Assembly (NCBI GenBank): GCA_963662265.2
Contig: CAXXHA010000008.1
Coordinates: 90,004-154,003, forward strand
Length of the DNA stretch: 64,000 nt
From: Spirochaetia bacterium
GTDB lineage: Bacteria > Spirochaetota > Spirochaetia > CADAEX01
Reading direction: 5' to 3'
The notes under the pieces are model-generated. The model worked only from the letters and a program-made list of their open reading frames with translations, had not been told where the DNA came from and searched no databases. The translations under genes were made by a program, and so were the position numbers. Position 1 is the stretch's first letter, and every line of letters starts with the position of its first letter. This document shows, one piece after another, positions 3,995 through 22,734 of the stretch.

Positions 3995-4846
3995 TCAACC
4001 CAGAAGCGCTTTAAGCTCTTCAAGTGTTTCCTTTTTTATGCTGAATGAGTGTTCAGGTCCCGGAAAACTTCCCTCCTTGACCTCTCTGCTGTACATGGAA
4101 AGCGCCTTGACAGATTCTGAATAAATATCTGCATAAACCTTCACAAACTTTGGTGTAAACTTCCTGTACATTCCAAGCATGTCATGATAGACAAGTACCT
4201 GCCCGTCACACCCTGCGCCTGCTCCTATTCCTATAGTAGGGACAGAAATCTTTTCCGTGATAATTTGTGCAAGCCCTGAAGGAATTGCTTCAAGCACTAT
4301 TGCATATGCACCTGCCTCATCAAGGGCTACAGCATCATCCACCATTTTCTTTGCAGCATCAAGCTTCTTACCCTGTACCTTGTGTCCCCCGAGAAGTGCT
4401 GCTGTCTGGGGAGTTAGCCCTATGTGGCCGCATACCGGGATACCTGCCTTGAATACAGCGCTAACTGTATCGGCATAGTCTGTCCCCCCTTCAAGCTTGA
4501 CAGAATCGGCCCTTCCTTTCTGGTAGAGTATGCCTGCATTTTCTATTGCCTGTTCTTTTGAAATATTGTAGCTCATGAAAGGCATATCGCCAATAACATG
4601 GGTATCCGGTGCTCCCCTCGTAACAGCCCTGATATGGATAAGCATATCATCCATTGTAACCGGGACTGTATCGCTGTATCCCAGTTCCACCATACCGAGA
4701 GAATCCCCGACAAGAATCATATCTACCCCGGCTTCCTCTGCTATCTGGGCCTGCGGATAGGAATAGGCAGTTACAACAGATATTTTATCTCCCTCTTTTT
4801 TCATGTCTTTAAGATTATTAAGAAGCAGTTTGCTGTTTCCTGACAT
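3995..4846 (-). CDS. panB: 3-methyl-2-oxobutanoate hydroxymethyltransferase
   Basis: LVGDSLGM, GDMPFMSY, VKLEGG, GHIGLTPQ, IGIGAG, GQVLV motifs. Confidence 0.96.
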   Translation of the reverse strand: MSGNSKLLLNNLKDMKKEGDKISVVTAYSYPQAQIAEEAGVDMILVGDSLGMVELGYSDTVPVTMDDMLIHIRAVTRGAPDTHVIGDMPFMSYNISKEQAIENAGILYQKGRADSVKLEGGTDYADTVSAVFKAGIPVCGHIGLTPQTAALLGGHKVQGKKLDAAKKMVDDAVALDEAGAYAIVLEAIPSGLAQIITEKISVPTIGIGAGAGCDGQVLVYHDMLGMYRKFTPKFVKVYADIYSESVKALSMYSREVKEGSFPGPEHSFSIKKETLEELKALLG

Positions 4847-5058: not shown

Positions 5059-6315
5059 TTAAAGTATATCGGAAATCACCTTGATTATTTTCTCCGCAAC
5101 TTCCTGCTTTGTAGCCATGGGTATCTTTATGTTCAGTCCCTCCCTGGAGAGCAGAATCATCTCGTTTGTGTCTGATTCAAACCCGGCACCGGATTTTGAA
5201 ACATCATTGACTGCAATCATATCAGCTGCCGCCTTGTTCATTCTCCAGGATGCATTTTCAACAAGGTCTTTTTCCTCCATATCATGAAGAGCCCTGAATG
5301 CAAGGAGAAATATATCAGGATACTTTTCCCTGATACTGTCTATAATCTTCGGTGTGGGTTTCAGTTCTATTGTAAGTCTGTCCCTGTTATGGGTTGAAAC
5401 CTTCTCAGATGAAGGATTAAGAGCCTGCCAGTCTCCGACAGCTGCAGCCGATGCAAAGAGGTCATATTTTTCCCCTGAAAGCTCGCTGTGGACTGCCCTG
5501 AACATTTTTTCCGCTGTTTCACCGTCAACAACTTTTATTCTTGATGATGGCTTAACTGTTATCTTACCAGCCACAAGCGTGACATCCGCCCCTGCCCTTA
5601 GTGCGGCTTCCGCAATTGCTACCCCCATCTTGCCTGATGAGTTGTTTGATATCACCCTGACAGGATCAAGGTATTCTACAGTCCTTCCCGCTGTCACAAG
5701 CACCCTCTTGCCTTTAAGCGGCTTGTTTTCAGTCTCGCTGTCCAGTATTTCTATGACTTTTTCAAGTATATCGCTGTTTTCAGGTATTTTAGCCTTACCC
5801 TCTTCGACACGGGGCATCATGACAGTAATACTGTTTTCTTCAAGCTTTCTGATGTTTTCCTTTACAAAAGGATGCCTGTACATAGGCTCATGCATTGCAG
5901 GGACCACGATAAGAGGTATCCCCTCGCCGAGGCCTGTAGTGACAAATGTTGTCACAGGTGTATCATCTATTCCGCATGCAATTTTTCCCACAGTGTTGGC
6001 TGTTGCAGGAGCTACAAGGATAAGATCTGCCTTTCCCTTGACATTTCCTGCCAGTGAAACATGTTCAACTTTGCCAGTTATTTCAGTTACTGCCTCATTT
6101 CCTGTCGCCCAGTGCATGAGGTCCGGGTGAATTATACCGCAGGCAGCCCTGCTCATAACAGGATAAACATCTGCCCCGTATCTCATGAGAAGCCTTGCAA
6201 TTTCAGATGCTCTCACTGCAGCAACACTCCCGCTTATGCAAAGCACTATTTTCTTTCCGCAAAGATCATCTGACAGAGTGCCTTTTATATCAAGGGAGGG
6301 ATGTTTTTCAGTCAT
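5059..6315 (-). CDS. coaBC: Bifunctional phosphopantothenoylcysteine decarboxylase/synthetase, archaeal-type
   Basis: Flavoprotein domain (SGSVAA, EHVSLA, APATAN, PAMH) plus synthetase domain (TAGRTVEYLDPVRVISNNSSGKMG, AAVGD, LKPTPKII). HPSLDI N-terminal extension and PRVEEGKAK clamp. Confidence 0.93.
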   Translation of the reverse strand: MTEKHPSLDIKGTLSDDLCGKKIVLCISGSVAAVRASEIARLLMRYGADVYPVMSRAACGIIHPDLMHWATGNEAVTEITGKVEHVSLAGNVKGKADLILVAPATANTVGKIACGIDDTPVTTFVTTGLGEGIPLIVVPAMHEPMYRHPFVKENIRKLEENSITVMMPRVEEGKAKIPENSDILEKVIEILDSETENKPLKGKRVLVTAGRTVEYLDPVRVISNNSSGKMGVAIAEAALRAGADVTLVAGKITVKPSSRIKVVDGETAEKMFRAVHSELSGEKYDLFASAAAVGDWQALNPSSEKVSTHNRDRLTIELKPTPKIIDSIREKYPDIFLLAFRALHDMEEKDLVENASWRMNKAAADMIAVNDVSKSGAGFESDTNEMILLSREGLNIKIPMATKQEVAEKIIKVISDIL

Positions 6316-6380
6316 ATTTCACTCCTATAACATGATAAAACAGTTTTTTATCATTACTTTCCTGACGCTATTATAATACT

Positions 6381-6639
6381 GCTTTCGAGCACTTTCTCTT
6401 CGAGAAAGTCTCTGTCGCTTATTGCAAAACAGGGTTTTGCAATTTTTCGAGCACTTCCTTTCAGGGAGTCTCTGTCGCTGATGATAAAAACTTATCATTT
6501 CTTTCTTAAACGCTTTCGAGCACTTCCTTCCAGGGAGTCTCTGTCGCTGATGATAAAAACTTATCATTTCTTTCTTAAACGCTTTCGAGCACTTCCTTTC
6601 AGGAAGTCTCTGTCGCTAATGATAAAAACTTATCATTTC
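6381..6639. repeat. Four-copy tandem structured repeat (period 62, 69, 69 bp)
   Basis: TTTCGAGCACT...AGTCTCTGTCGCT core starts at 6383, 6445, 6514 and 6583, each followed by a palindrome (ATGATAAAAACTTATCAT or ATTGCAAAACAGGGTTTTGCAAT). Confidence 0.95.
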
Positions 6640-6688
6640 CTGTTTTATTATATATTCAGGTTTGTTTTATTCCTTTGCAGCATCAGCC

Positions 6689-7468
6689 TCACACAGTGTC
6701 TGCAAGTTCTTTCACATGTTCAGAAATATGTATAAGCGATGCTTTGAGTACTGCCCGGTTATCATACTGTTTAAGAAGACTCTGGAGTTCTTCCCTGCTT
6801 TTATCTTTCATCTTTCCAATATAGTTGCAGATACATGGCAGAGCACGTGTAATATTGTCAATAATTGAAATATCTGCTTTTCGGGGAGTCCTCGAAATGG
6901 GATTAAGATCAACAGTTACAACTTTCTTTCCCATTGCAACAAGTGCATCTGTCCTGTCTCCGTCTTCAAGAGGAACAAAGACAAGGTCGGCTTTTAGTAT
7001 CCCGTCAGGGTCCACTATTCTCCTGTCACTTGAGAGTTCGGGGATTGTTGCACCCATTTTAAGTCTCTCCTCGGTACCGAGGACCTCATCAGCGCCTGCC
7101 TTCTCAAGGACTTCAAGTATTGCAGCTTCCCGTCCATTTTCCCTGTAAAAAAGGTTTATCTCGAGTTTTGCACCTGAGATTTTTGAAAGCTCAACAAGTT
7201 CTTCGGGGACCAGCTGTGCGACATTGCCGTTAACAGAAATTACAGGACGTTCTGCCAGAAGAAAAGCTGCTGCTGCTGCCTCGCATGCCCTGTCTGCAAA
7301 AGGGGCTGTCTTTTCCCCTATCAGGTAATCAAAAGCCTCGCCCCTTCCCTGGGCAATAAGACCTGCCGGAGCCACAATTTTCTTTTCGCATCCCTTTATC
7401 AGGTTATGCCTTATCATCATCGCCTTGTAGCGGGGATGATCTTCCGGTATATTAATCTTCACTGACAA
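6689..7468 (-). CDS. 4'-phosphopantoate--beta-alanine ligase (phosphopantothenate synthetase, PPS; archaeal COG1701 family)
   Basis: IPEDHPRY, GLIAQGRGEAFDYLIGEKT, PVISVNGN, EINLFYR, VPLEDGDRT, VDLNPISRT and IIDNITRA are diagnostic of the archaeal PPS family. Confidence 0.93.
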   Translation of the reverse strand: MSVKINIPEDHPRYKAMMIRHNLIKGCEKKIVAPAGLIAQGRGEAFDYLIGEKTAPFADRACEAAAAAFLLAERPVISVNGNVAQLVPEELVELSKISGAKLEINLFYRENGREAAILEVLEKAGADEVLGTEERLKMGATIPELSSDRRIVDPDGILKADLVFVPLEDGDRTDALVAMGKKVVTVDLNPISRTPRKADISIIDNITRALPCICNYIGKMKDKSREELQSLLKQYDNRAVLKASLIHISEHVKELADTV

Positions 7469-8384
7469 TTCTTACTCCCCCTTTTGCAATATTTGAATAA
7501 AAAAGCTGAGGTTTAACATCTGAATCAATCTTTTTTATTATTTCAGTATATATTTTCTGCATTTTTCCAAGCTCATCCTTGTCTATAATTGAGAAAGTAC
7601 CCTCGCCGAACATAAGCATACTGCTTTTTATTCCCCTGAGGTCAAGTTCATCAAGTATCATTCTGACACTGGATGGAATAATTCCCGTACTTTCAGCAAA
7701 TGCTCTCGAGTATTCCATGAATCTCTCAAATTCCGGAGTCTCCTGTATCATGCTGTGGTATTTTTCACCGCTTTTCATAATACTTTCACGGACTTCAGGG
7801 TTGCTTAAAGCCTCGCTTGTGGAATAGGGACCGAAAACTATGAATGCGGCATAAAGCCCTTTCGGATACTTTATTGAAATAGTCTTCCCTATTCCGGGGG
7901 CTCCCGGTTCAACAAGGACTTTGAATCCCCCCATGGTCTCTCCCATGACTGTACCGAGACCTGTCTTGCAGAGGACTTCAGCGACATGCGCTATCTGGGA
8001 TACCTTGATTGCGCTCAGCGGATCATTGTAGAGGCGGTTCAGAGCAAATGCAAGGCTCAAGGCGCCTGAACCGCTTGATCCGAAACCTGCGCCCTGGGGC
8101 GTCTCAATATGATGCCTGATATCGACCTGCCTGTACGGGATATCTGCCCAATCATGAAAAAGTTCAACAACTTTCCTGCTGACAGGAGCATCACAGTTCT
8201 TATCACGGTTAATGGAAACAGCAGTCTCTGATATTTTGCTGTTAAACGAAACTGAAGTAAAAGCTCCCTTTTTCAGGGAAAACCCGGATCCCAGAGATCC
8301 CCTGTAGAGGGGGTCTTCAATCAGATCCTTCATATAAAACAATCCGGTAACGTGACCGGGAGAAAACGCAATAACCTTGTTCAT
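7452..8384 (-). CDS. Pantoate kinase (PoK; GHMP superfamily, archaeal COG1829 family)
   Basis: AFSPGHVTGLF, GSLGSGF, PQGAGFGSSGSGAL (GHMP ATP loop), AHVAEV..KTGLGTV, PGAPG. Overlaps the PPS gene. Confidence 0.9.
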   Translation of the reverse strand: MNKVIAFSPGHVTGLFYMKDLIEDPLYRGSLGSGFSLKKGAFTSVSFNSKISETAVSINRDKNCDAPVSRKVVELFHDWADIPYRQVDIRHHIETPQGAGFGSSGSGALSLAFALNRLYNDPLSAIKVSQIAHVAEVLCKTGLGTVMGETMGGFKVLVEPGAPGIGKTISIKYPKGLYAAFIVFGPYSTSEALSNPEVRESIMKSGEKYHSMIQETPEFERFMEYSRAFAESTGIIPSSVRMILDELDLRGIKSSMLMFGEGTFSIIDKDELGKMQKIYTEIIKKIDSDVKPQLFYSNIAKGGVRIVSED

Positions 8385-8481
8385 AACACTGAGTATCTAA
8401 CATAAGCGTTTTTTTTTCAACACTATACATAAAGGTTATCAACTACTTACAAAAGAATGAGTTTCTGTTATGCTTGGAATA

Positions 8482-9411
8482 ATGAAAACAGCAATAATCG
8501 GTGCAGGTGCTATAGGAAGTCTTTTCGGATCACTTTTGAAAATAAACAATATTGATGCAGTTTTATTTGACAGGGACCAGGATAAAATAAACTATATTAA
8601 AAACAACGGGCTTAAGCTGATCTATCCGGGTAACGGAGAAAGCTTCAGGATTTATCCGGAAGCAGAATCTGATATCATGAAAATAAAAGATTTTGACTAT
8701 TATCTCATGTGCGTGAAATCATATTCAACAGAAGCTGCTGCAGCTGAAATCAGTGCAGTATGCAGCAGTAAATCTGTTATTGTTACTTTTCAGAACGGCA
8801 TGGGAAATGTAGATATACTGAAAAAATATTTCCCGGAAAGCAGAATTGCTGCAGGTACAACATCGGAGGGGGCATCGTTCAAGTCACCCGGTACTGTTAT
8901 ATACGGAGGTAAAGGAAAGACCTCTTTTTCAATTATAGATGCAGGTAATGACAATAAAAAGCTCGGGCAGCTCATAACAATGCTGAATAACGGAGGCATT
9001 GATACCTCCCGGGCAGACAACTACAGGAGGGATATATGGAAAAAGCTTATTGTCAACGCTGCAATAAATCCCTTAACTGCAGTTCTCAGGGTCAAAAATA
9101 TTTCTGTCTCAGAATCCCCCTGTCTCAGGAACCTTGCTGAAATGATAATTTCAGAATCTGTAAAAGCGGCAGAAGCTGACGGGATATTTTTCGATTATGA
9201 AGAGATAAGAGAAAATGTATTTAATATTGCGGAAAAAACTGCTGAAAACAGGTCTTCGATGCTCCAGGATATAGAAAACAAAAGGAAAACAGAGATTGAC
9301 TATATATCGGGAACTGCGGCAGACAGGGCGGAAAAAGCAGGAATAGAAAAATCTGTAAACAGGATAATGCAGAATATAATCAAAGTACTTGAAAACAGGT
9401 ACTTCACTTAA
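8482..9411 (+). CDS. panE: 2-dehydropantoate 2-reductase
   Basis: GAGAIG Rossmann motif, [39 protein letters not shown]. Start set to MKTAII at 8482. Confidence 0.93.
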
Positions 9412-9437
9412 AAAAATATAATTGTTACAATTCCACC

Positions 9438-10010
9438 ATGAATGAACAACGAGTACAGGAACTTATTAAAGAACTTCTCATCGAAATAGGCGAAGATCCT
9501 GAAAGGGAAGGACTCCTGACAACACCGGACAGATTTGCAAAAGCATTTTCATTCCTGACTAAGGGATACAACGAAAATATAGAAGATGTCATCAATGGAG
9601 CTGTTTTTACGACAGAAAGCAACAACATGGTGATCCTCAGGGATATTGAGGTTTACAGCCTGTGTGAACATCACATGCTTCCCTTCTACGGGAAATGCCA
9701 TATCGGATACATACCTAAAAACAAGCTGCTTGGAGTAAGCAAGCTTGCAAGAATTGTGGAAGTTTATGCAAGAAGGCTCCAGATACAGGAGAGGCTCACT
9801 GCACAGATCGCAGATGCCATAAAAAATGCCATTGATGTTGAGGGAGTCGGCGTTGTAATGGAATGCAAACACCTCTGCATGATGATGAGGGGTGTTGAAA
9901 AGCAGAATTCCTTCATGACAACATCAACAGTACTCGGAAGTTTTCACAACCAGCTGGCAACAAGGCAGGAATTCATGAATCTTATAGGGATAGGAAGAAC
10001 ACAGCTCTGA
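9438..10010 (+). CDS. folE: GTP cyclohydrolase I
   Basis: [44 protein letters not shown] motifs. Confidence 0.97.
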
Positions 10011-10212
10011 CAGATATAAATAGCCCTGCAGGCAGACAATCTTAAGCACTGTTCCATGTTCTGATCGGGGAAAAAAAGCAGAAAGATGGTTTTAAAGAAG
10101 TACCTGTAAAACCTCTTTCAAAGGCAGTCTGAATCAAGTAACAAGTCAGATAAATTTAAAACAGCTTTCCTGAAAAGGAAAGCCGTAATATTCCTGAAAA
10201 ATATCTGAACTG

Positions 10213-11787
10213 TTATTTCCCCAGCATCAGTTTTGTAAGCTGGAGGAAAAAATATATTTTTCTGTATATTTTCTTTATCTCTTCAGGGAGGTTACCGGGA
10301 TATTCCCCCTTCACTACTGAAGGATTGATAATAATCGACATTTTTGTTGTATCTTCAAGATCCGGAAGAAGATCCTTGAGACTGTTTGCTACTTTAACAA
10401 GATTCCTGTAAGTATCCTGCCCCAGCACAACAGCTCGGTTATTGACATCCATAAGGCATTTCTTTACATCAACCTTGTACTTGGGCTCTGCAGTCATTCT
10501 CTTCATGAAAGTATTCAGCTTTATCCCCACTTCCTCGTCCGAAGCAAGCGACTGGTCAAAATCAGTGATTTTTTCTGAAAGGGAAACAAGTTCATCCATT
10601 GTATCGGAGAGTTCCTTGCTGTAATTATTTGACTTCCATTCGACCTTTACTACGAAAAAATTCACGAGTTTCAGGATATCGCTTTTAACAACATCAAGCA
10701 TAAATGCCTTGAGATAATTCATGAAATCAACATGGAGATAACCTCCAAGAAGCTTTGTCTTGAATGCTGTGTTGTTGCTTTCAGTGTAATACTTCATCCT
10801 GCTTATTGCAGTGGTGCCGAATATTTCCTTGAGAAGATTATCCCTCCTGCTGTTCTTTGTTTCTTTTATAACTTTCTGTATAACAAGCTCGGTAGATGTT
10901 TTCAGTTTATTGAAATACTCCTCAAATATTTCCCCGTCAGGATCGGAAACAACCGGCTTGTAAAAAGGGTCCTTGTTAAGAAGCTTTACAATATAAAGAA
11001 GAACCTGGGATTTTTCTATCGCAGAAACTGCACCAAGGACTTTACCCCACTGCTGTCTGGGAATGAGTTCCTGCTGCTTGAATAACTCGAGAACTGCGAA
11101 GAGTTTTTCCCAGTCAGGATATTTAAGTATCACAGGAAACATTGATATTGTATCAACAATATCCTCTGTGATATATTCACAGGTTATAGGTGTAAAAGAA
11201 GGTTTATACTTGAAATCCATTTCACCGAAATTTGAATCAAATTTCCTGAGTAGAAAGTAATAATCAAATTTTATAAACTGGAGAAATGCAAGATACTGTC
11301 TGTAGAGAAGATGAACATTCTGTTTCTGCTCATCAGTTATGGATTTCAAGAGAACATCAAGCTCTTTTTTTACAACTTTTATAACAGCAGGATTTTCCTT
11401 TATCCTTTTTTCCACATTATCCTTATGAAGCCTGTTAATAAGTTCTTTCTGTTTCTCGCTCAGCTGGCTGTCGATAAAGAGGTATTTGAGAGCAGGGGAT
11501 TCTTCCTGGTTTGCCAGAAAACTTGCAGGAACTGCCACAGTCTTGTAGATCTGGTAATAGAACTGTGCAAGCTGGGGAAGCGCCTCTTCTGTCTTTACAT
11601 TGAGAAATTTATATTTCTGTTTTCTGAGTATTTTCTGAATATCCTTCAGAAGTCTCCGCTTTTTTGCTTCCGGAGAATTATTAACAAAAAAACTGAGTAT
11701 TTTTTCTATAAATGAAAGCGGCTGCTGCTCCTCTGTGCTGAGCTGACTTTCATCAGAATATTCATCCTGCAGCAAATCATTATCCAT
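10213..11787 (-). CDS. Conserved spirochaetal hypothetical protein (DUF5312-like)
   Basis: Long helical ORF with EAKKRRLLKDI and FDYYFLLRKFD motifs typical of this spirochaete family. Start moved to ATG 11787 because the TTG at 11823 is part of a -35 box. Confidence 0.6.
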   Translation of the reverse strand: MDNDLLQDEYSDESQLSTEEQQPLSFIEKILSFFVNNSPEAKKRRLLKDIQKILRKQKYKFLNVKTEEALPQLAQFYYQIYKTVAVPASFLANQEESPALKYLFIDSQLSEKQKELINRLHKDNVEKRIKENPAVIKVVKKELDVLLKSITDEQKQNVHLLYRQYLAFLQFIKFDYYFLLRKFDSNFGEMDFKYKPSFTPITCEYITEDIVDTISMFPVILKYPDWEKLFAVLELFKQQELIPRQQWGKVLGAVSAIEKSQVLLYIVKLLNKDPFYKPVVSDPDGEIFEEYFNKLKTSTELVIQKVIKETKNSRRDNLLKEIFGTTAISRMKYYTESNNTAFKTKLLGGYLHVDFMNYLKAFMLDVVKSDILKLVNFFVVKVEWKSNNYSKELSDTMDELVSLSEKITDFDQSLASDEEVGIKLNTFMKRMTAEPKYKVDVKKCLMDVNNRAVVLGQDTYRNLVKVANSLKDLLPDLEDTTKMSIIINPSVVKGEYPGNLPEEIKKIYRKIYFFLQLTKLMLGK

Positions 11788-11908
11788 AGAATTATAATAG
11801 TGATAAAACCGCCTCACTGTCAATCTTATTAATTAAGTCTGTGACAGCATGACACAAAACACCATGTTTTTCGAATAAAATGTTTCAAGGCAAGTATTTT
11901 TAGCTTTC

Positions 11909-12832
11909 TCAGTCTTTATAGAGCCGTCCCTGTCTTGCTCCCTGCCTTATCATCTCTTTTGCAAGAATCGTGTATATCTCCCCTTTCCTTAAGTCCCGCC
12001 TCGGAGCAGCTCTTCTCTTATCAGGAGTATCGCAGGTCACTCTCATGATTACCATATCCTCTGGCAGAAGTTCTATCGCCTTTACAAGATATGTTATATG
12101 CCTCATCCCGCACGGAACACTTAACTCCCCTTTCAAATACTCATCAAACAGAGGAGTAGAAAGTGGAACATGGAGGTTATGAAGCTTAATCCCTTCAGGC
12201 TTCTGACTTGCAAGATATTTTACACTCATCATCATATCATCAAATGATTCATCCGGGAGTCCGAAAATAAGGTGGGTAATTAGCTTTATCCCCCTTTCCC
12301 TGAGCATATGAAAGGCTTTTTCAAAATCCGCTACAGTATGTCCCCTGTTTATTCTTACAAGTGTCCTGTCATGGCTGCTCTGGAGACCAAGCTCCACCCA
12401 GACCTCAAGTCCTTTTTCCCTGTATGAGGCGAGAAGATCTGCCTTCTCTTCATCAATACAGTCAGGCCTTGTTGAGACAATTATTTCCCTGAAATCCCCG
12501 AGAGAAAGACAGTAGTCATATATTTCCTTCAGTTCATCTGTTTCGCCGTATGTTCCGGAAAAAGCCTGGATATAGAGGAGAAATATTTCTGCATTATATC
12601 TTTTTTTAAGAAACCTCACCCCCCGTTCAACCTGCTCCCTGATTTCAACCGATTTATCAAGATAGGTGGCCCTGGCCCCGTTTCCGTCACAGTATGTACA
12701 GCCGGGTCTGCTTCTGTCTTCTCCCCTGTTCGGGCATGAAAGTCCGATATCGACAGAGACGCGGAATGCTTTTTTCCCGTATTTATTTATGAGGTAATTC
12801 GAATAGTTGTTAAAAGGTAATTTTATATCCAT
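11909..12832 (-). CDS. TIGR01212/YhcC-family radical SAM protein
   Basis: CPNR...GCTYC, STRPDC, VELGLQS, INRGH, IKLHNLH motifs. Confidence 0.9.
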   Translation of the reverse strand: MDIKLPFNNYSNYLINKYGKKAFRVSVDIGLSCPNRGEDRSRPGCTYCDGNGARATYLDKSVEIREQVERGVRFLKKRYNAEIFLLYIQAFSGTYGETDELKEIYDYCLSLGDFREIIVSTRPDCIDEEKADLLASYREKGLEVWVELGLQSSHDRTLVRINRGHTVADFEKAFHMLRERGIKLITHLIFGLPDESFDDMMMSVKYLASQKPEGIKLHNLHVPLSTPLFDEYLKGELSVPCGMRHITYLVKAIELLPEDMVIMRVTCDTPDKRRAAPRRDLRKGEIYTILAKEMIRQGARQGRLYKD

Positions 12833-20306: not shown

Positions 20307-20759
20307 TTATCTTTTAATATTAATGATTGCAGGAAACGATGAGACTTTGAAAAACTCTTCAGTTTTTGCAAAAAACAGCATACTCTTAACAAGTTCATCA
20401 GCAACTGAATAAACAGAATCATCTTCAGTTTCATATGAGATAAAGAGGCTCCACTTATCTTTGTTTACATAGCAGAGGACATTGTCAGAGACCCTGTAAA
20501 AGCTGTATTTAACCCCTGAAAGTTTTTTCCACCCTGTAAAAACAGGAATATCTTCTGTAGAATAGAAAACTTCTATTTTCTTATCATCCAGCTGATAAAT
20601 CCCCTTGTAACAGGGTATAACATTTTCACCTATTCCCGGAACACCTTCAGTCAGGAGGGGCCCTTCGAGAAGATATGCGAAACTGTTACTATCCTGAGAA
20701 AAAGAAAGGGTCATACCTGATAACAGTAAAATTATCAGGCATGTAATATATTTATTCAA
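20307..20759 (-). CDS. Hypothetical exported protein
   Basis: Probable TTG start overlapping the glmS stop; signal peptide NKYITCLIILLLSGMTLSFS. Confidence 0.55.
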   Translation of the reverse strand: MNKYITCLIILLLSGMTLSFSQDSNSFAYLLEGPLLTEGVPGIGENVIPCYKGIYQLDDKKIEVFYSTEDIPVFTGWKKLSGVKYSFYRVSDNVLCYVNKDKWSLFISYETEDDSVYSVADELVKSMLFFAKTEEFFKVSSFPAIINIKR

Positions 20760-22576
20760 CTGTGACACTCTTGGCAAGGTTCCTGGGCTGATCTACATCC
20801 CGGCTCAGGTTCAGGGCGCAGTAATATGAAAACAGCTGCAGAGGTATACTCATGAGGAAAGGATATATATATTCGGATGCATGCGGTACACAGAAAACAT
20901 CATCTGCAATTTCAGCAACATCTTTATCATTATCAACGCAGAAAGCAATAACCTTCCCTTTTCTTGCCTTGACCTCTTTCATATTTGATATGACTTTTTC
21001 CCTGAGCCTGTCATCCGGCACAAGAAACAGTGAAGGTGTCTCTTCATTAATCAGCGCAATAGGCCCGTGCTTGATCTCAGCTGCACTGAAACCCTCTGCA
21101 TGGATATAGGAGATCTCTTTGAGTTTAAGTGCCCCCTCAAGAGCAACTGGATAGTTTATACCCCTTCCCAGGAATATAAAATTCTCCGCTTTACAGTATT
21201 TATCAGCAAGTTTCCTGACTTCATCCTTCCTGTCAAGAATCATGCCGATAAGATCAGGTATTGAATGCAGCTGACTGACAAACTCGCTGCCTGATTCGAA
21301 TGACATATCTTTCATTCTTGCCATCATCAGGGTAAATATATAAAGTGCTGTCAGCTGTGAAGTAAAGGCTTTTGTCGAGGCAACAGCAATTTCAGGACCT
21401 GAGTGGATATAAACCCCGCCGTCTGTTTCTCTTGCAATAGTTGAACCTACAACATTGCATATCCCCAGCACCTTTGCCCCCTTCCTCTGGAGTTCCCTCA
21501 TTGCATAGAGAGTATCTGCAGTCTCCCCTGACTGGGAAACTACAAAGTAGAGTGCATTTTTTTTCAATAATCGGATTTCTGTACCTGAGCTCGGATGCAA
21601 GCTCTGTAGTTGCCGGAATTCTGGCTACAGATTCCATAAGGTATGCAGCAACCATACCTGCATGGTATGAAGTCCCTGCAGCAACAATAACCACCCTCTC
21701 AATATTTAGAAGTTCAGAACTGGTCATGTTGAGACCGCCGAGGTGACCTGTTGCCATTTCCTTTCTTAGCCGTCCAAGCAGTCCCCTGGTGATTGATTCT
21801 TTCTGCTCAAATATTTCCTTGAGCATGAAATGGTCGAATTCACCCTTATCAAAAGCTTCACATTCCCAGTCAACTTCATCAACTTTCTTGCTTATCTTCT
21901 TCGCATCAAGACCTGAAGTCCTGAAAGAATCCGGTGTTACTGTTATAATCTCGCCGTCTTCGATATATACTACCTGTTTTGTATATGAAATCATTGCTGT
22001 AACATCAGAAGCAAGAAACATCTCGTTTTCGCCGATACCGAGGATCAGAGGAGATCCGTTTCTTGCACCTACAAGAGTTTCTGGATGTTCCTTGTGCATG
22101 ACAACAAGCCCGTATGTCCCCTTGAGCCTTACAGCAGCATCCCTTACTGCCTTGGTAAGGTCTCCCTCATAGAGATCTTCAATAAGGTGTGCAATTACTT
22201 CTGAATCTGTTTCAGATCTGAATTTATGACCTTTCTCAACAAGTATGCTTTTAAGCTGCATGTAGTTTTCAATTATTCCGTTATGGACAATTGTGATCTT
22301 CCCGGTACAGTCTGAATGGGGATGCGCGTTTTCATCAGTTACGCCTCCATGTGTCGCCCACCTTGTATGGCCTATACCGTTTTTGCCGAAAGGTTCATCA
22401 GGCACTATTTCCCTGAGTTCTTTTATCTTGCCTTTCCGTTTTAATATCCTGAATCCATCCTCAGTACCGACAGAAATACCGGCTGAATCATATCCCCGGT
22501 ATTCAAGACGTCTGAGCCCTTCAAGAAGTATTTCTGAAGCAGGTTTTATCCCGCAGTATCCGACTATTCCGCACAT
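20752..22576 (-). CDS. glmS: Glutamine--fructose-6-phosphate aminotransferase (split by +1 insertion at 21557-21564)
   Basis: MCGIVG start, LEYRGYDSAG, GHTRWATHG and HNGIIEN in one frame; SQSGETADT, ASTKAFT, EGALKLKEISY and PRNLAKSVTVE in the next. They join if A8 is read as A7 (IIEKNALYF). Confidence 0.95.
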
Positions 22577-22734
22577 ATAATAATTCTCCCTAATCTGAAT
22601 CGAAGTACATTTTTTACATTGATTCTGCATATTTTTACCAGTTACCAGTCAGGTCTCTGAAGAACACACAAAACCTGGAAACAACTATCTGCTGTTCAGT
22701 ATACCGGCATATTTAATGAAAATGTTTATTTTTT

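Follow-up and report, generated by a model that had tools for sequence, protein, structure and literature searches.

An archaeal-class CoaBC in Spirochaetia, probably acquired with a coenzyme A operon from a relative of Bathyarchaeia

How did a spirochaete come to encode a coenzyme A (CoA) biosynthesis enzyme with an active site of archaeal appearance? This question is raised by coaBC, a gene at positions 5059 to 6315 on the minus strand of a 64-kb window, by which we mean the whole stretch of DNA analyzed here (64,000 nucleotides of contig CAXXHA010000008.1, GenBank assembly GCA_963662265.2, from a Spirochaetia bacterium). An earlier sequence-only reading had noted three unusual motifs in the product, had taken two of them as marks of archaeal enzymes, and had proposed that coaBC is the third consecutive CoA gene of archaeal origin, transferred as a block with the genes for pantoate kinase (PoK) and for phosphopantothenate synthetase (PPS). 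We think it likely that the window encodes a working bifunctional CoaBC of an archaeal class and that an ancestor within Spirochaetia acquired an archaeal CoA operon from a relative of Bathyarchaeia, the genes of which have since descended together.

The coaBC gene has an ATG start with an AGGAG a few bases 5' of it and encodes a protein of 418 amino acids, a predicted bifunctional phosphopantothenoylcysteine decarboxylase/phosphopantothenate-cysteine ligase that we assign to a short-clamp (archaeal-type) class. The protein scores 372.1 bits against the NCBIfam equivalog TIGR00521 (coaBC_dfp; cut-off, 219.7 bits) over residues 20 to 414 of 418, and it has the two-domain architecture of an HFCD flavoprotein followed by a DFP/CoaB domain. 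The CoaC half, the flavin mononucleotide (FMN)-dependent decarboxylase, spans residues 1 to 195 (5731 to 6315, minus strand), with Pfam PF02441 (Flavoprotein) at residues 21 to 190 (1.2e-28), and the CoaB (ligase) half spans residues 196 to 418 (5062 to 5730, minus strand), with PF04127 (DFP) at residues 200 to 388 (9.9e-55). AlphaFold2, given an alignment of 17 sequences, produced a model with a mean pLDDT of 86.9. In Foldseek comparisons, this model matched the full-length Mycobacterium smegmatis CoaBC structure 6tgv over 412 columns (E value, 8e-27), its CoaB half matched Escherichia coli CoaB with a TM score (target) of 0.83 to 0.86, and its CoaC half matched AtHAL3a and EpiD with a TM score (target) of 0.78 to 0.90.

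We also compared the cluster genes with those of the related locus L001 and found ratios of nonsynonymous to synonymous substitution rates (dN/dS) of 0.028 for coaBC, 0.088 for the PPS gene, and 0.058 for the PoK gene, with dS near saturation. Thus, coaBC is under strong purifying selection. The low dN/dS, together with two published results, argues that the short-clamp class of CoaBC is functional: according to an excerpt of PMC6650551, disruption of the CoaBC homologue of Thermococcus kodakarensis (TK0517) leads to CoA auxotrophy, and PMC7794376, from which we likewise draw on an excerpt, treats the M. smegmatis CoaBC, a Cys-less enzyme of the His type, as an active drug target.

The three motifs of the sequence-only reading, PAMH, a PRVEEGKAK clamp without Cys, and an N-terminal HPSLDI, are all present where it had placed them, both in the sequence and in a MAFFT alignment of the window CoaBC with E. 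coli Dfp, eight other labeled bacterial CoaBC proteins, and 150 cluster representatives (149 scorable). These representatives are the best matches to a His-type query, and proportions among them are biased. In PAMH (residues 139 to 142; 5890 to 5901, minus strand), His142 stands in place of E. coli Asn125 of PXMNXXMW, and the Asn of the family (E. coli Asn125, AtHAL3a Asn142) is thereby absent, as it is replaced by His in 132 of the 149 scorable representatives. The Met of PXMNXXMW is retained as Met145, which aligns with E. coli Met128, and the catalytic His of the family, E. coli His75, is retained as His85 (6061 to 6063, minus strand), a column that holds His in 142 of the 149. The substrate clamp PRVEEGKAK (residues 168 to 176; 5788 to 5814, minus strand) is short and Cys-less and is predicted to form a beta-hairpin, which is tight in the model, with strands at residues 169 to 171 and 174 to 176. 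Measured between identical anchor columns, the clamp segment has 19 residues in the window protein and 25 to 26 in all nine labeled bacterial CoaBC proteins. Residues 164 to 182 contain no Cys that could be the equivalent of AtHAL3a Cys175, while a clamp Cys is present in seven of the nine labeled bacteria.

At the N terminus, HPSLDI (residues 5 to 10; 6286 to 6303, minus strand, located by sequence match) is predicted by the structure model to form a short helix at residues 6 to 10. At this place the nine bacterial references have just 1 to 11 residues ahead of the first strand, and an HP[STA] motif is found in 55 of the 132 His-type representatives and in none of the 10 Asn-type ones. An additional signature lies in the CoaB half, where K-V-S-T-H (5389 to 5403, minus strand) takes the place of K-X-K-K, the motif that binds the triphosphate of CTP according to an excerpt of PMC7794376; only the first Lys, Lys305, is retained in the window protein (K305-V-S-T), and the nine bacterial references all read K-x-[KR]-[KR]. 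Across 17 aligned sequences with 55 to 90% identity to the window CoaBC, residues H5, P6, S7, D9, I10, P139, A140, M141, H142, E172, K174, A175, and K176 are invariant, which shows that the motifs are conserved features and not chance.

Among the representatives, a clamp Cys occurs in none of the 132 His-type proteins and in 8 of the 10 Asn-type proteins, which have a G-x-G-R loop with the Cys. The clamp lacks this loop in 128 of the His-type proteins and has it in 4, and the full pattern of His plus a Cys-less clamp without the loop is seen in 128 of the 149. Within this biased sample, the pairing of His with the loss of Cys is strict. Outside it, a Bacteroides CoaBC has Asp for the Asn and no clamp Cys, and a Sinorhizobium CoaBC retains the Asn and also has no clamp Cys. 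The M. smegmatis protein 6tgv, the best solved-structure match (127 bits), shares both PAMH and the absence of a clamp Cys with the window protein, so these two traits are not restricted to archaea. It is unlike the window protein in its long clamp with a G-x-G-R loop (G-P-G-R), in its identity of approximately 26%, and in having no HPSxDI N terminus, and we place it on the bacterial side, as judged from the representatives P0241 and P0260, which have the same pattern. Thus, the substitution of His for Asn and the loss of Cys that the sequence-only reading took as an archaeal mark are indeed present here, but as an exclusively archaeal mark they fail on the M. smegmatis, Bacteroides, and Sinorhizobium proteins. 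We would instead regard as diagnostic the combination of PAMH, a six-residue-shorter EEGKAK hairpin, the N-terminal HPSxDI, and the altered K-x-K-K of CoaB. Compared to E. coli Dfp, to which it is 31% identical, the window protein has His142 for Asn, no clamp Cys, a clamp shorter by six residues, and K-V-S-T for K-I-K-K, while the fold, the predicted two-step flavin chemistry, and the catalytic His and Met are common to it, E. coli Dfp, and AtHAL3a.

Relatives of the window CoaBC were collected by scanning a single genome of each species with the patterns VPAMHE[PS]M and GRTVEY[IL]DP, and the best 80 of at least 596 matching stretches were kept; PAMH was part of the retrieval pattern, so its uniformity among these 80 loci is partly by construction. 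Spirochaetota account for 66 of the 80 loci, with CoaBC proteins 51 to 90% identical to that of the window, and Bathyarchaeia or Bathyarchaeota account for 12, with CoaBC proteins that are 52 to 56% identical over the full length. The remaining two are a Hydrothermota locus (L066; 54% identical) and a locus labeled Hyphomonadaceae on a 3.7-kb contig (L030; 57% identical). The L030 protein nests among soda-lake-type spirochaete sequences in an exploratory tree, and its contig is probably mis-binned spirochaete DNA. A tblastn search of a plasmid collection, which includes many mislabeled chromosomes, returned 79 bacterial records and no others, none of which exceeds 37% identity to the window CoaBC; the bacterial outgroup was drawn from them. 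The similarity to Bathyarchaeia extends over both domains: the CoaC half is 59 to 64% identical to Bathyarchaeia and L066 versus 32 to 36% to the nine bacterial references, and the CoaB half is 45 to 53% identical to Bathyarchaeia versus 33 to 42% to the references. The Bathyarchaeia contigs carry archaeal genes, such as those for a FlaI-like ATPase and an ArlJ/UpsF-like protein (L075), a CdvA-like protein and LipS1/LipS2 (L071), and Mer and CofE (L063). Domain-level leads from the Atlas gave 95% Archaea, 72% Archaea, and 70% Bacteria for the clusters nearest the window protein and 95 to 96% Archaea for those nearest a deep representative, P0233.

We then placed the protein in a maximum likelihood (ML) tree made with IQ-TREE under LG+C20+F+G4 with posterior mean site frequencies (PMSF), using 422 columns and 96 rows (the window, 27 spirochaete loci, 12 Bathyarchaeia, L066, 46 unlabeled representatives, and the nine labeled bacteria). 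In this tree, the 28 spirochaete rows are monophyletic (support, 100/99), the 12 Bathyarchaeia and L066 are monophyletic (100/99), and these clades group together as sisters (100/97). The 82 short-clamp rows are set off from the bacterial rows, including all nine labeled ones, by a branch of length 0.45 (100/99), and P0260 and P0241, which are of the His type but have a long clamp, diverge immediately outside them. The remainder of the short-clamp clade is a poorly resolved radiation of unlabeled sequences. The window CoaBC thus does not group with the labeled bacterial CoaBC proteins, as the sequence-only reading had predicted. Its expectation that the protein would nest within archaeal clades held in part: the affinity is archaeal, with the spirochaetes as sisters of Bathyarchaeia, and the protein is not nested among the sampled Bathyarchaeia.

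The two genes next to coaBC encode enzymes of archaeal type. The PPS gene (6689 to 7468, minus strand) encodes a 4-phosphopantoate--beta-alanine ligase, the archaeal phosphopantothenate synthetase, with PF02006, scores of 352 bits for NF010324 (cut-off, 227) and 300.0 bits for NF041123 (cut-off, 300), and a match of 266 bits to PDB 3wdk over residues 5 to 257. The PoK gene (7452 to 8384, minus strand) overlaps the PPS gene by 17 nucleotides and encodes a GHMP kinase whose top NCBIfam matches are two pantoate kinase models, ahead of all others by 1e33; its scores of 139 and 136 bits lie below the narrow cut-offs of these models (500 and 380), and it matches PDB 6jbc, "Pantoate kinase," with 133 bits over residues 5 to 281. 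Both are described as archaeal enzymes (PMC7883664 and an excerpt of PMC6650551), and their order with coaBC is common to Bathyarchaeia, which bears out the description of coaBC as a third consecutive CoA gene of archaeal type. A second, bacterial-type coaBC was found neither in the 64-kb window nor in the 80 related loci, and the same holds for PanC and PanD. One representative, P0018 (724 amino acids), is 66% identical to the window CoaBC over its full length and also has the PPS domain PF02006; as a CoaBC-PPS fusion, it supports a functional link of the two genes.

In 6 of the 12 Bathyarchaeia loci (L069, L071, L074 to L076, and L080), the gene order is PoK-PPS-panE-panB-mfnA-coaBC-PPAT, where the gene between panB and coaBC encodes the archaeal MfnA (TIGR03812; 493 bits in L071 and 410 bits in the spirochaete locus L034) and the gene after coaBC encodes an archaeal-type phosphopantetheine adenylyltransferase (PPAT; NF001985). 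Four other Bathyarchaeia loci have shorter versions, some of them cut by contig ends, and two have coaBC alone. The Bathyarchaeia CoaBC proteins share HPSxDI (HPSKDI there), PAMH, and EEGKAK with the window protein, as well as the relative order of PoK, PPS, and coaBC. The window cluster differs in that PPS and coaBC are not separated by panE, panB, or mfnA, in that no archaeal PPAT gene follows coaBC, and in that its host is bacterial; no mfnA or archaeal PPAT gene was found anywhere in the 64-kb window. Among the spirochaetes, PoK-PPS-panB-mfnA-coaBC is seen in 13 of the 66 loci and PoK-PPS-panB-coaBC in 1. The order of the window, PoK-PPS-coaBC, usually with panB and folD after it and with panE and folE before it on the opposite strand, occurs in 10 loci, and PoK-PPS-coaBC is found in 1 further locus, with 3 more cut by contig ends.

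Two departures from these orders were also observed. Five rumen Spirochaetia loci (L010 to L014) have PoK-coaBC-folD with no PPS gene within up to 10 kb (at about 9049 to 12129), and either PPS is encoded elsewhere or the pathway is incomplete. In the Bathyarchaeota locus L063 (10001 to 11838), coaBC has no PoK or PPS gene in the 10 kb upstream and is followed by a gene for a bacterial-type CoaD (TIGR01510; 175 bits), where nine other Bathyarchaeia loci have the archaeal PPAT gene, which suggests a mosaic in the opposite direction.

The trees of the three proteins tell the same story. The PPS tree (34 rows) splits spirochaetes from Bathyarchaeia at a support of 100 and the PoK tree (38 rows) does so at 99, and both recover the spirochaete sub-clades of CoaBC. 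When the comparison is confined to the 33 taxa with all three genes, the PPS tree recovers 18 and the PoK tree all 19 of the 19 strong CoaBC splits, with no conflict between strong splits in any pairing. The congruence of CoaBC with PoK and PPS that the sequence-only reading had called for is therefore observed. Its further proposal, that the whole block was transferred together, is supported by gene order and by this congruence, but the linkage is incomplete among the spirochaetes, and in the lineage of the window the block has been remodeled.

The remodeling is seen in panB, which encodes a ketopantoate hydroxymethyltransferase of bacterial type and lies after coaBC in the window (3995 to 4846, minus strand). 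The window PanB is 58% identical to the PanB of Enterococcus plasmids, where panB sits in a panB-panC-panD operon, versus 46 to 51% identical to the PanB of Bathyarchaeia. A quick tree of 37 PanB rows unites the 10 PanB proteins of the window clade (100) and places them beside Enterococcus (87) and the other references, while the PanB proteins of 14 other spirochaetes fall on the Bathyarchaeia side of a split at 93. These identities and this tree indicate that the window lineage lost the panB-mfnA pair that lay between PPS and coaBC and relies on a panB with a different origin. We had considered panB as part of the transferred block in this genome and rejected it on the same grounds; in other spirochaetes it does belong to the block. 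Thus, the ancestor of a large Spirochaetia group would have gained PoK-PPS-panB-mfnA-coaBC from a relative of present-day Bathyarchaeia, and the window lineage would later have lost panB-mfnA from between PPS and coaBC, so that a bacterial-type panB now follows coaBC.

Acquisition of the block from archaea is well supported, and we infer that transfer ran from archaea to bacteria because PoK, PPS, and MfnA are described as archaeal families, because the Bathyarchaeia cluster is the fuller one, because the site-heterogeneous tree shows the spirochaetes and Bathyarchaeia as a derived pair, and because of the case of L066. The L066 contig is bacterial, with genes for a TonB-dependent receptor, PorZ, and PorV, and carries panB-mfnA-coaBC (1 to 2893, with flanks to 11498), and its CoaBC nests inside Bathyarchaeia in the 96-row tree (98/88). 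This looks like a second, independent archaea-to-bacteria transfer of the block. Several observations weigh against the reading as a whole, and most of them concern either the polarity of the transfer or the linkage of the genes. With respect to polarity, 41 of the 82 short-clamp rows are unlabeled metagenome representatives and the only labeled archaea are Bathyarchaeia, and the PPS and PoK trees contain spirochaetes and Bathyarchaeia only, with no outside root. When the spirochaetes and the bacterial-type rows were forced onto one side of a branch, the tree was 53.5 log-likelihood units worse and marginally rejected under PMSF with 96 rows (P = 0.043 in the approximately unbiased [AU] test and 0.056 in the Kishino-Hasegawa and Shimodaira-Hasegawa tests), 33.5 units worse and not rejected under LG+G4 with 40 rows (AU, P = 0.133), and 24.6 units better than a short free search under LG+G4 with 96 rows (AU, P = 0.663). 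In addition, an excerpt of PMC6650551 lists Bathyarchaeota among the archaea that lack PoK and PPS, by which the Bathyarchaeia cluster might be secondary. The results with the forced trees and the published listing speak for a different polarity, in which the spirochaete CoaBC is the deep sister of all archaeal-type CoaBC, either through a very old transfer whose donor was a stem lineage or an unsampled one or because the Bathyarchaeia cluster came from bacteria. We consider this quite improbable. Site-homogeneous models tend to unite long stems, and the site-heterogeneous ML tree recovers spirochaetes plus Bathyarchaeia as a derived pair (100/97); in the forced tree, the branch that separates Bathyarchaeia from the other 41 representatives is just 0.004. 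The families of the cluster are described as archaeal (PoK, PPS, MfnA of TIGR03812, and the Bathyarchaeia PPAT of NF001985), and the bacterial L066 lies inside Bathyarchaeia. Contrary to the published listing, we found PoK and PPS together in 8 of the 12 Bathyarchaeia loci (L069, L071, L073 to L076, L078, and L080), a discrepancy due either to changed sampling or to a patchy distribution of the cluster among Bathyarchaeia. In the forced tree, the short-clamp clade stays whole (branch length, 0.77) and is rooted on the spirochaete stem, which shows that membership in the clade is robust while the position within archaea is not. The assignment of the window CoaBC to the short-clamp class, and not to the class of the nine labeled bacteria, is accordingly robust, and its placement with the other spirochaetes as a derived branch inside the archaeal radiation is the best-supported reading and moderately secure.

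With respect to linkage, 33 of the 66 spirochaete loci have coaBC without PoK, PPS, panB, or mfnA in the retrieved flanks, including 10 whose flanks extend for at least 8 kb in each direction, and the five rumen loci have PoK-coaBC without PPS. Together with the variation in gene order among spirochaete sub-clades and the different origin of panB in the window lineage, by which a cluster can evidently be rebuilt, this is what would be expected if coaBC and PoK-PPS had entered separately from similar archaeal donors or if coaBC had first replaced a bacterial coaBC. Such a piecemeal history seems unlikely to us, as the five-gene order of 13 spirochaete loci is the Bathyarchaeia order minus panE, and as 18 to 19 of 19 strong splits are common to the three trees, with the spirochaete-Bathyarchaeia split at 99 to 100 in each. 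An artifact, by which archaeal DNA was misjoined to a spirochaete contig or the contig was mis-binned, can be set aside almost entirely. It is true that many of the relatives are metagenome bins and that L030 is probably mis-binned, but the window contig is bacterial and spirochaetal: its 64 kb hold two genes for FlaA sheath proteins, three for flagellins, and genes for FliD, FlgK, FlgN, IF-3, SSB, and an OmpA-family protein, and the cluster is flanked on both sides by spirochaete sheath and bacterial housekeeping genes. Its G+C content of 0.43 to 0.44 lies within the range of the window (0.31 to 0.45), and six related loci have the same folE, panE, and folD flanks, of which three lie on chromosome-scale records of 3.8 to 3.9 Mb. 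The nearest relative of the CoaBC, at 90% identity, is on a 3.79-Mb chromosome record labeled Spirochaetia, and the spirochaete proteins form a clade of their own that is just 52 to 56% identical to Bathyarchaeia. We find it equally hard to believe that a vertically inherited bacterial CoaBC gained PAMH, lost its Cys, and shortened its clamp independently. PAMH and Cys loss did arise in long-clamp bacteria (M. smegmatis 6tgv and the representatives P0241 and P0260), and the Bacteroides and Sinorhizobium references have no clamp Cys; however, the similarity to Bathyarchaeia goes beyond the motifs in both domains, the 100/99 branch parts the clade from bacterial sequences, and the neighbors are archaeal-type enzymes in archaeal order.

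What would such an enzyme do in its spirochaete host? From family membership and gene order, PoK is predicted to phosphorylate pantoate, and PPS is predicted to join the product to beta-alanine, giving 4'-phosphopantothenate. The CoaB half would then attach cysteine via an acyl-nucleotide intermediate, and the FMN-containing CoaC half would oxidize and decarboxylate the cysteine moiety and reduce the product to 4'-phosphopantetheine. The PPCS-PPCDC of Methanocaldococcus jannaschii and TK0517 of T. kodakarensis are likewise bifunctional and act after PoK and PPS, and we take both to have an EEGKAK-type clamp together with PAMH. The proton donor of the plant and E. coli enzymes is the clamp Cys. 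As described in an excerpt of PMC9604783, His90, Asn142, and Met145 of AtHAL3a serve the flavin-dependent oxidation and decarboxylation, and Cys175 serves the reduction of the intermediate. In the window CoaBC, the catalytic His and Met are retained, His stands in for Asn, and the clamp Cys is absent. The proton for the reduction step would thus have to come from a group other than Cys, with His142 or a conserved Glu or Lys of EEGKAK as candidates. A broader proposal is that bacteria received the operon from Bathyarchaeia-like archaea on at least two occasions (in the Spirochaetia ancestor and in Hydrothermota), that it displaced PanC, PanK, and CoaBC in the spirochaetes, and that this CoaC is a mechanistic variant with a different proton donor. 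We regard this proposal as possible but put it forward tentatively.

The surroundings of coaBC show further features. The spacer between the PPS gene and coaBC (6316 to 6688) is 373 bp long, compared to 28 bp in the closest relative, L001, and contains a 69-bp tandem repeat (6403 to 6639, minus strand) of 2.8 copies and a partial fourth, with 96% matches. Each repeat unit has two predicted hairpins, the stretch folds better than its shuffles (z = -3.6), and the core motif of the repeat occurs four times in the spacer and nowhere else in the window. A scan of the window with Rfam at gathering thresholds found no family, and the 69-bp repeats match no known RNA family in it. Upstream of the PoK gene, panE (8470 to 9411, plus strand) encodes a ketopantoate reductase; the gene is divergent from the cluster, and its product is 28 to 33% identical to that of the panE inside the Bathyarchaeia cluster. 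Elsewhere in the window, two overlapping open reading frames (ORFs) in different frames (20752 to 22630, minus strand) jointly resemble one glmS: the ORF at 21392 to 22630 has the glutamine amidotransferase domain and the start of a SIS domain, and that at 20752 to 21600 has two SIS domains. This split may reflect a frameshift or a sequencing error.

Transfer of CoA genes between domains was already known. The one published bacterial precedent for PoK and PPS that we found is in the sponge-associated Poribacteria, which have archaeal PoK and PPS and no PanK or PS, attributed to horizontal transfer (Thomes & Lescure 2020, PMC7883664). The CoaBC of Poribacteria is described there just as homologous to the E. 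coli enzyme, and neither an archaeal-type CoaBC nor a conserved operon is reported (PMC7883664). The spirochaetes are a different phylum, and the transferred set in them includes CoaBC and, in relatives of the window, panB and mfnA. In open-access full text, we found no paper that links pantoate kinase, phosphopantoate, or phosphopantothenate synthetase with spirochaetes. A review on CoA metabolism of gut microbes mentions neither pantoate kinase nor archaea nor spirochaetes. What is new here is the archaeal-class CoaBC itself, the preserved operon order, and the breadth of the recipient group.

Which of the two steps between pantoate and 4'-phosphopantothenate comes first has served as a distinguishing trait of archaea and bacteria, with the Poribacteria reported as an unexpected exception. 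The locus described here is a second and broader exception, a radiation of free-living and gut-associated spirochaetes with PoK, PPS, and an archaeal-class CoaBC, many members of which also carry the archaeal beta-alanine-forming decarboxylase, in Bathyarchaeia operon order. It offers a clear-cut case of an essential pathway transferred between domains at the scale of an operon, and it calls for caution in the use of PoK, PPS, and CoaBC type as archaeal markers in metagenome binning and annotation. If the operon did move into bacteria twice, PoK, PPS, and CoaBC type would no longer be domain markers. The spirochaetes also provide culturable bacterial hosts in which a Cys-less, His-containing decarboxylase can be studied, and if its CoaC is a mechanistic variant, the reduction half-reaction would use a proton donor unlike that of the textbook enzyme.

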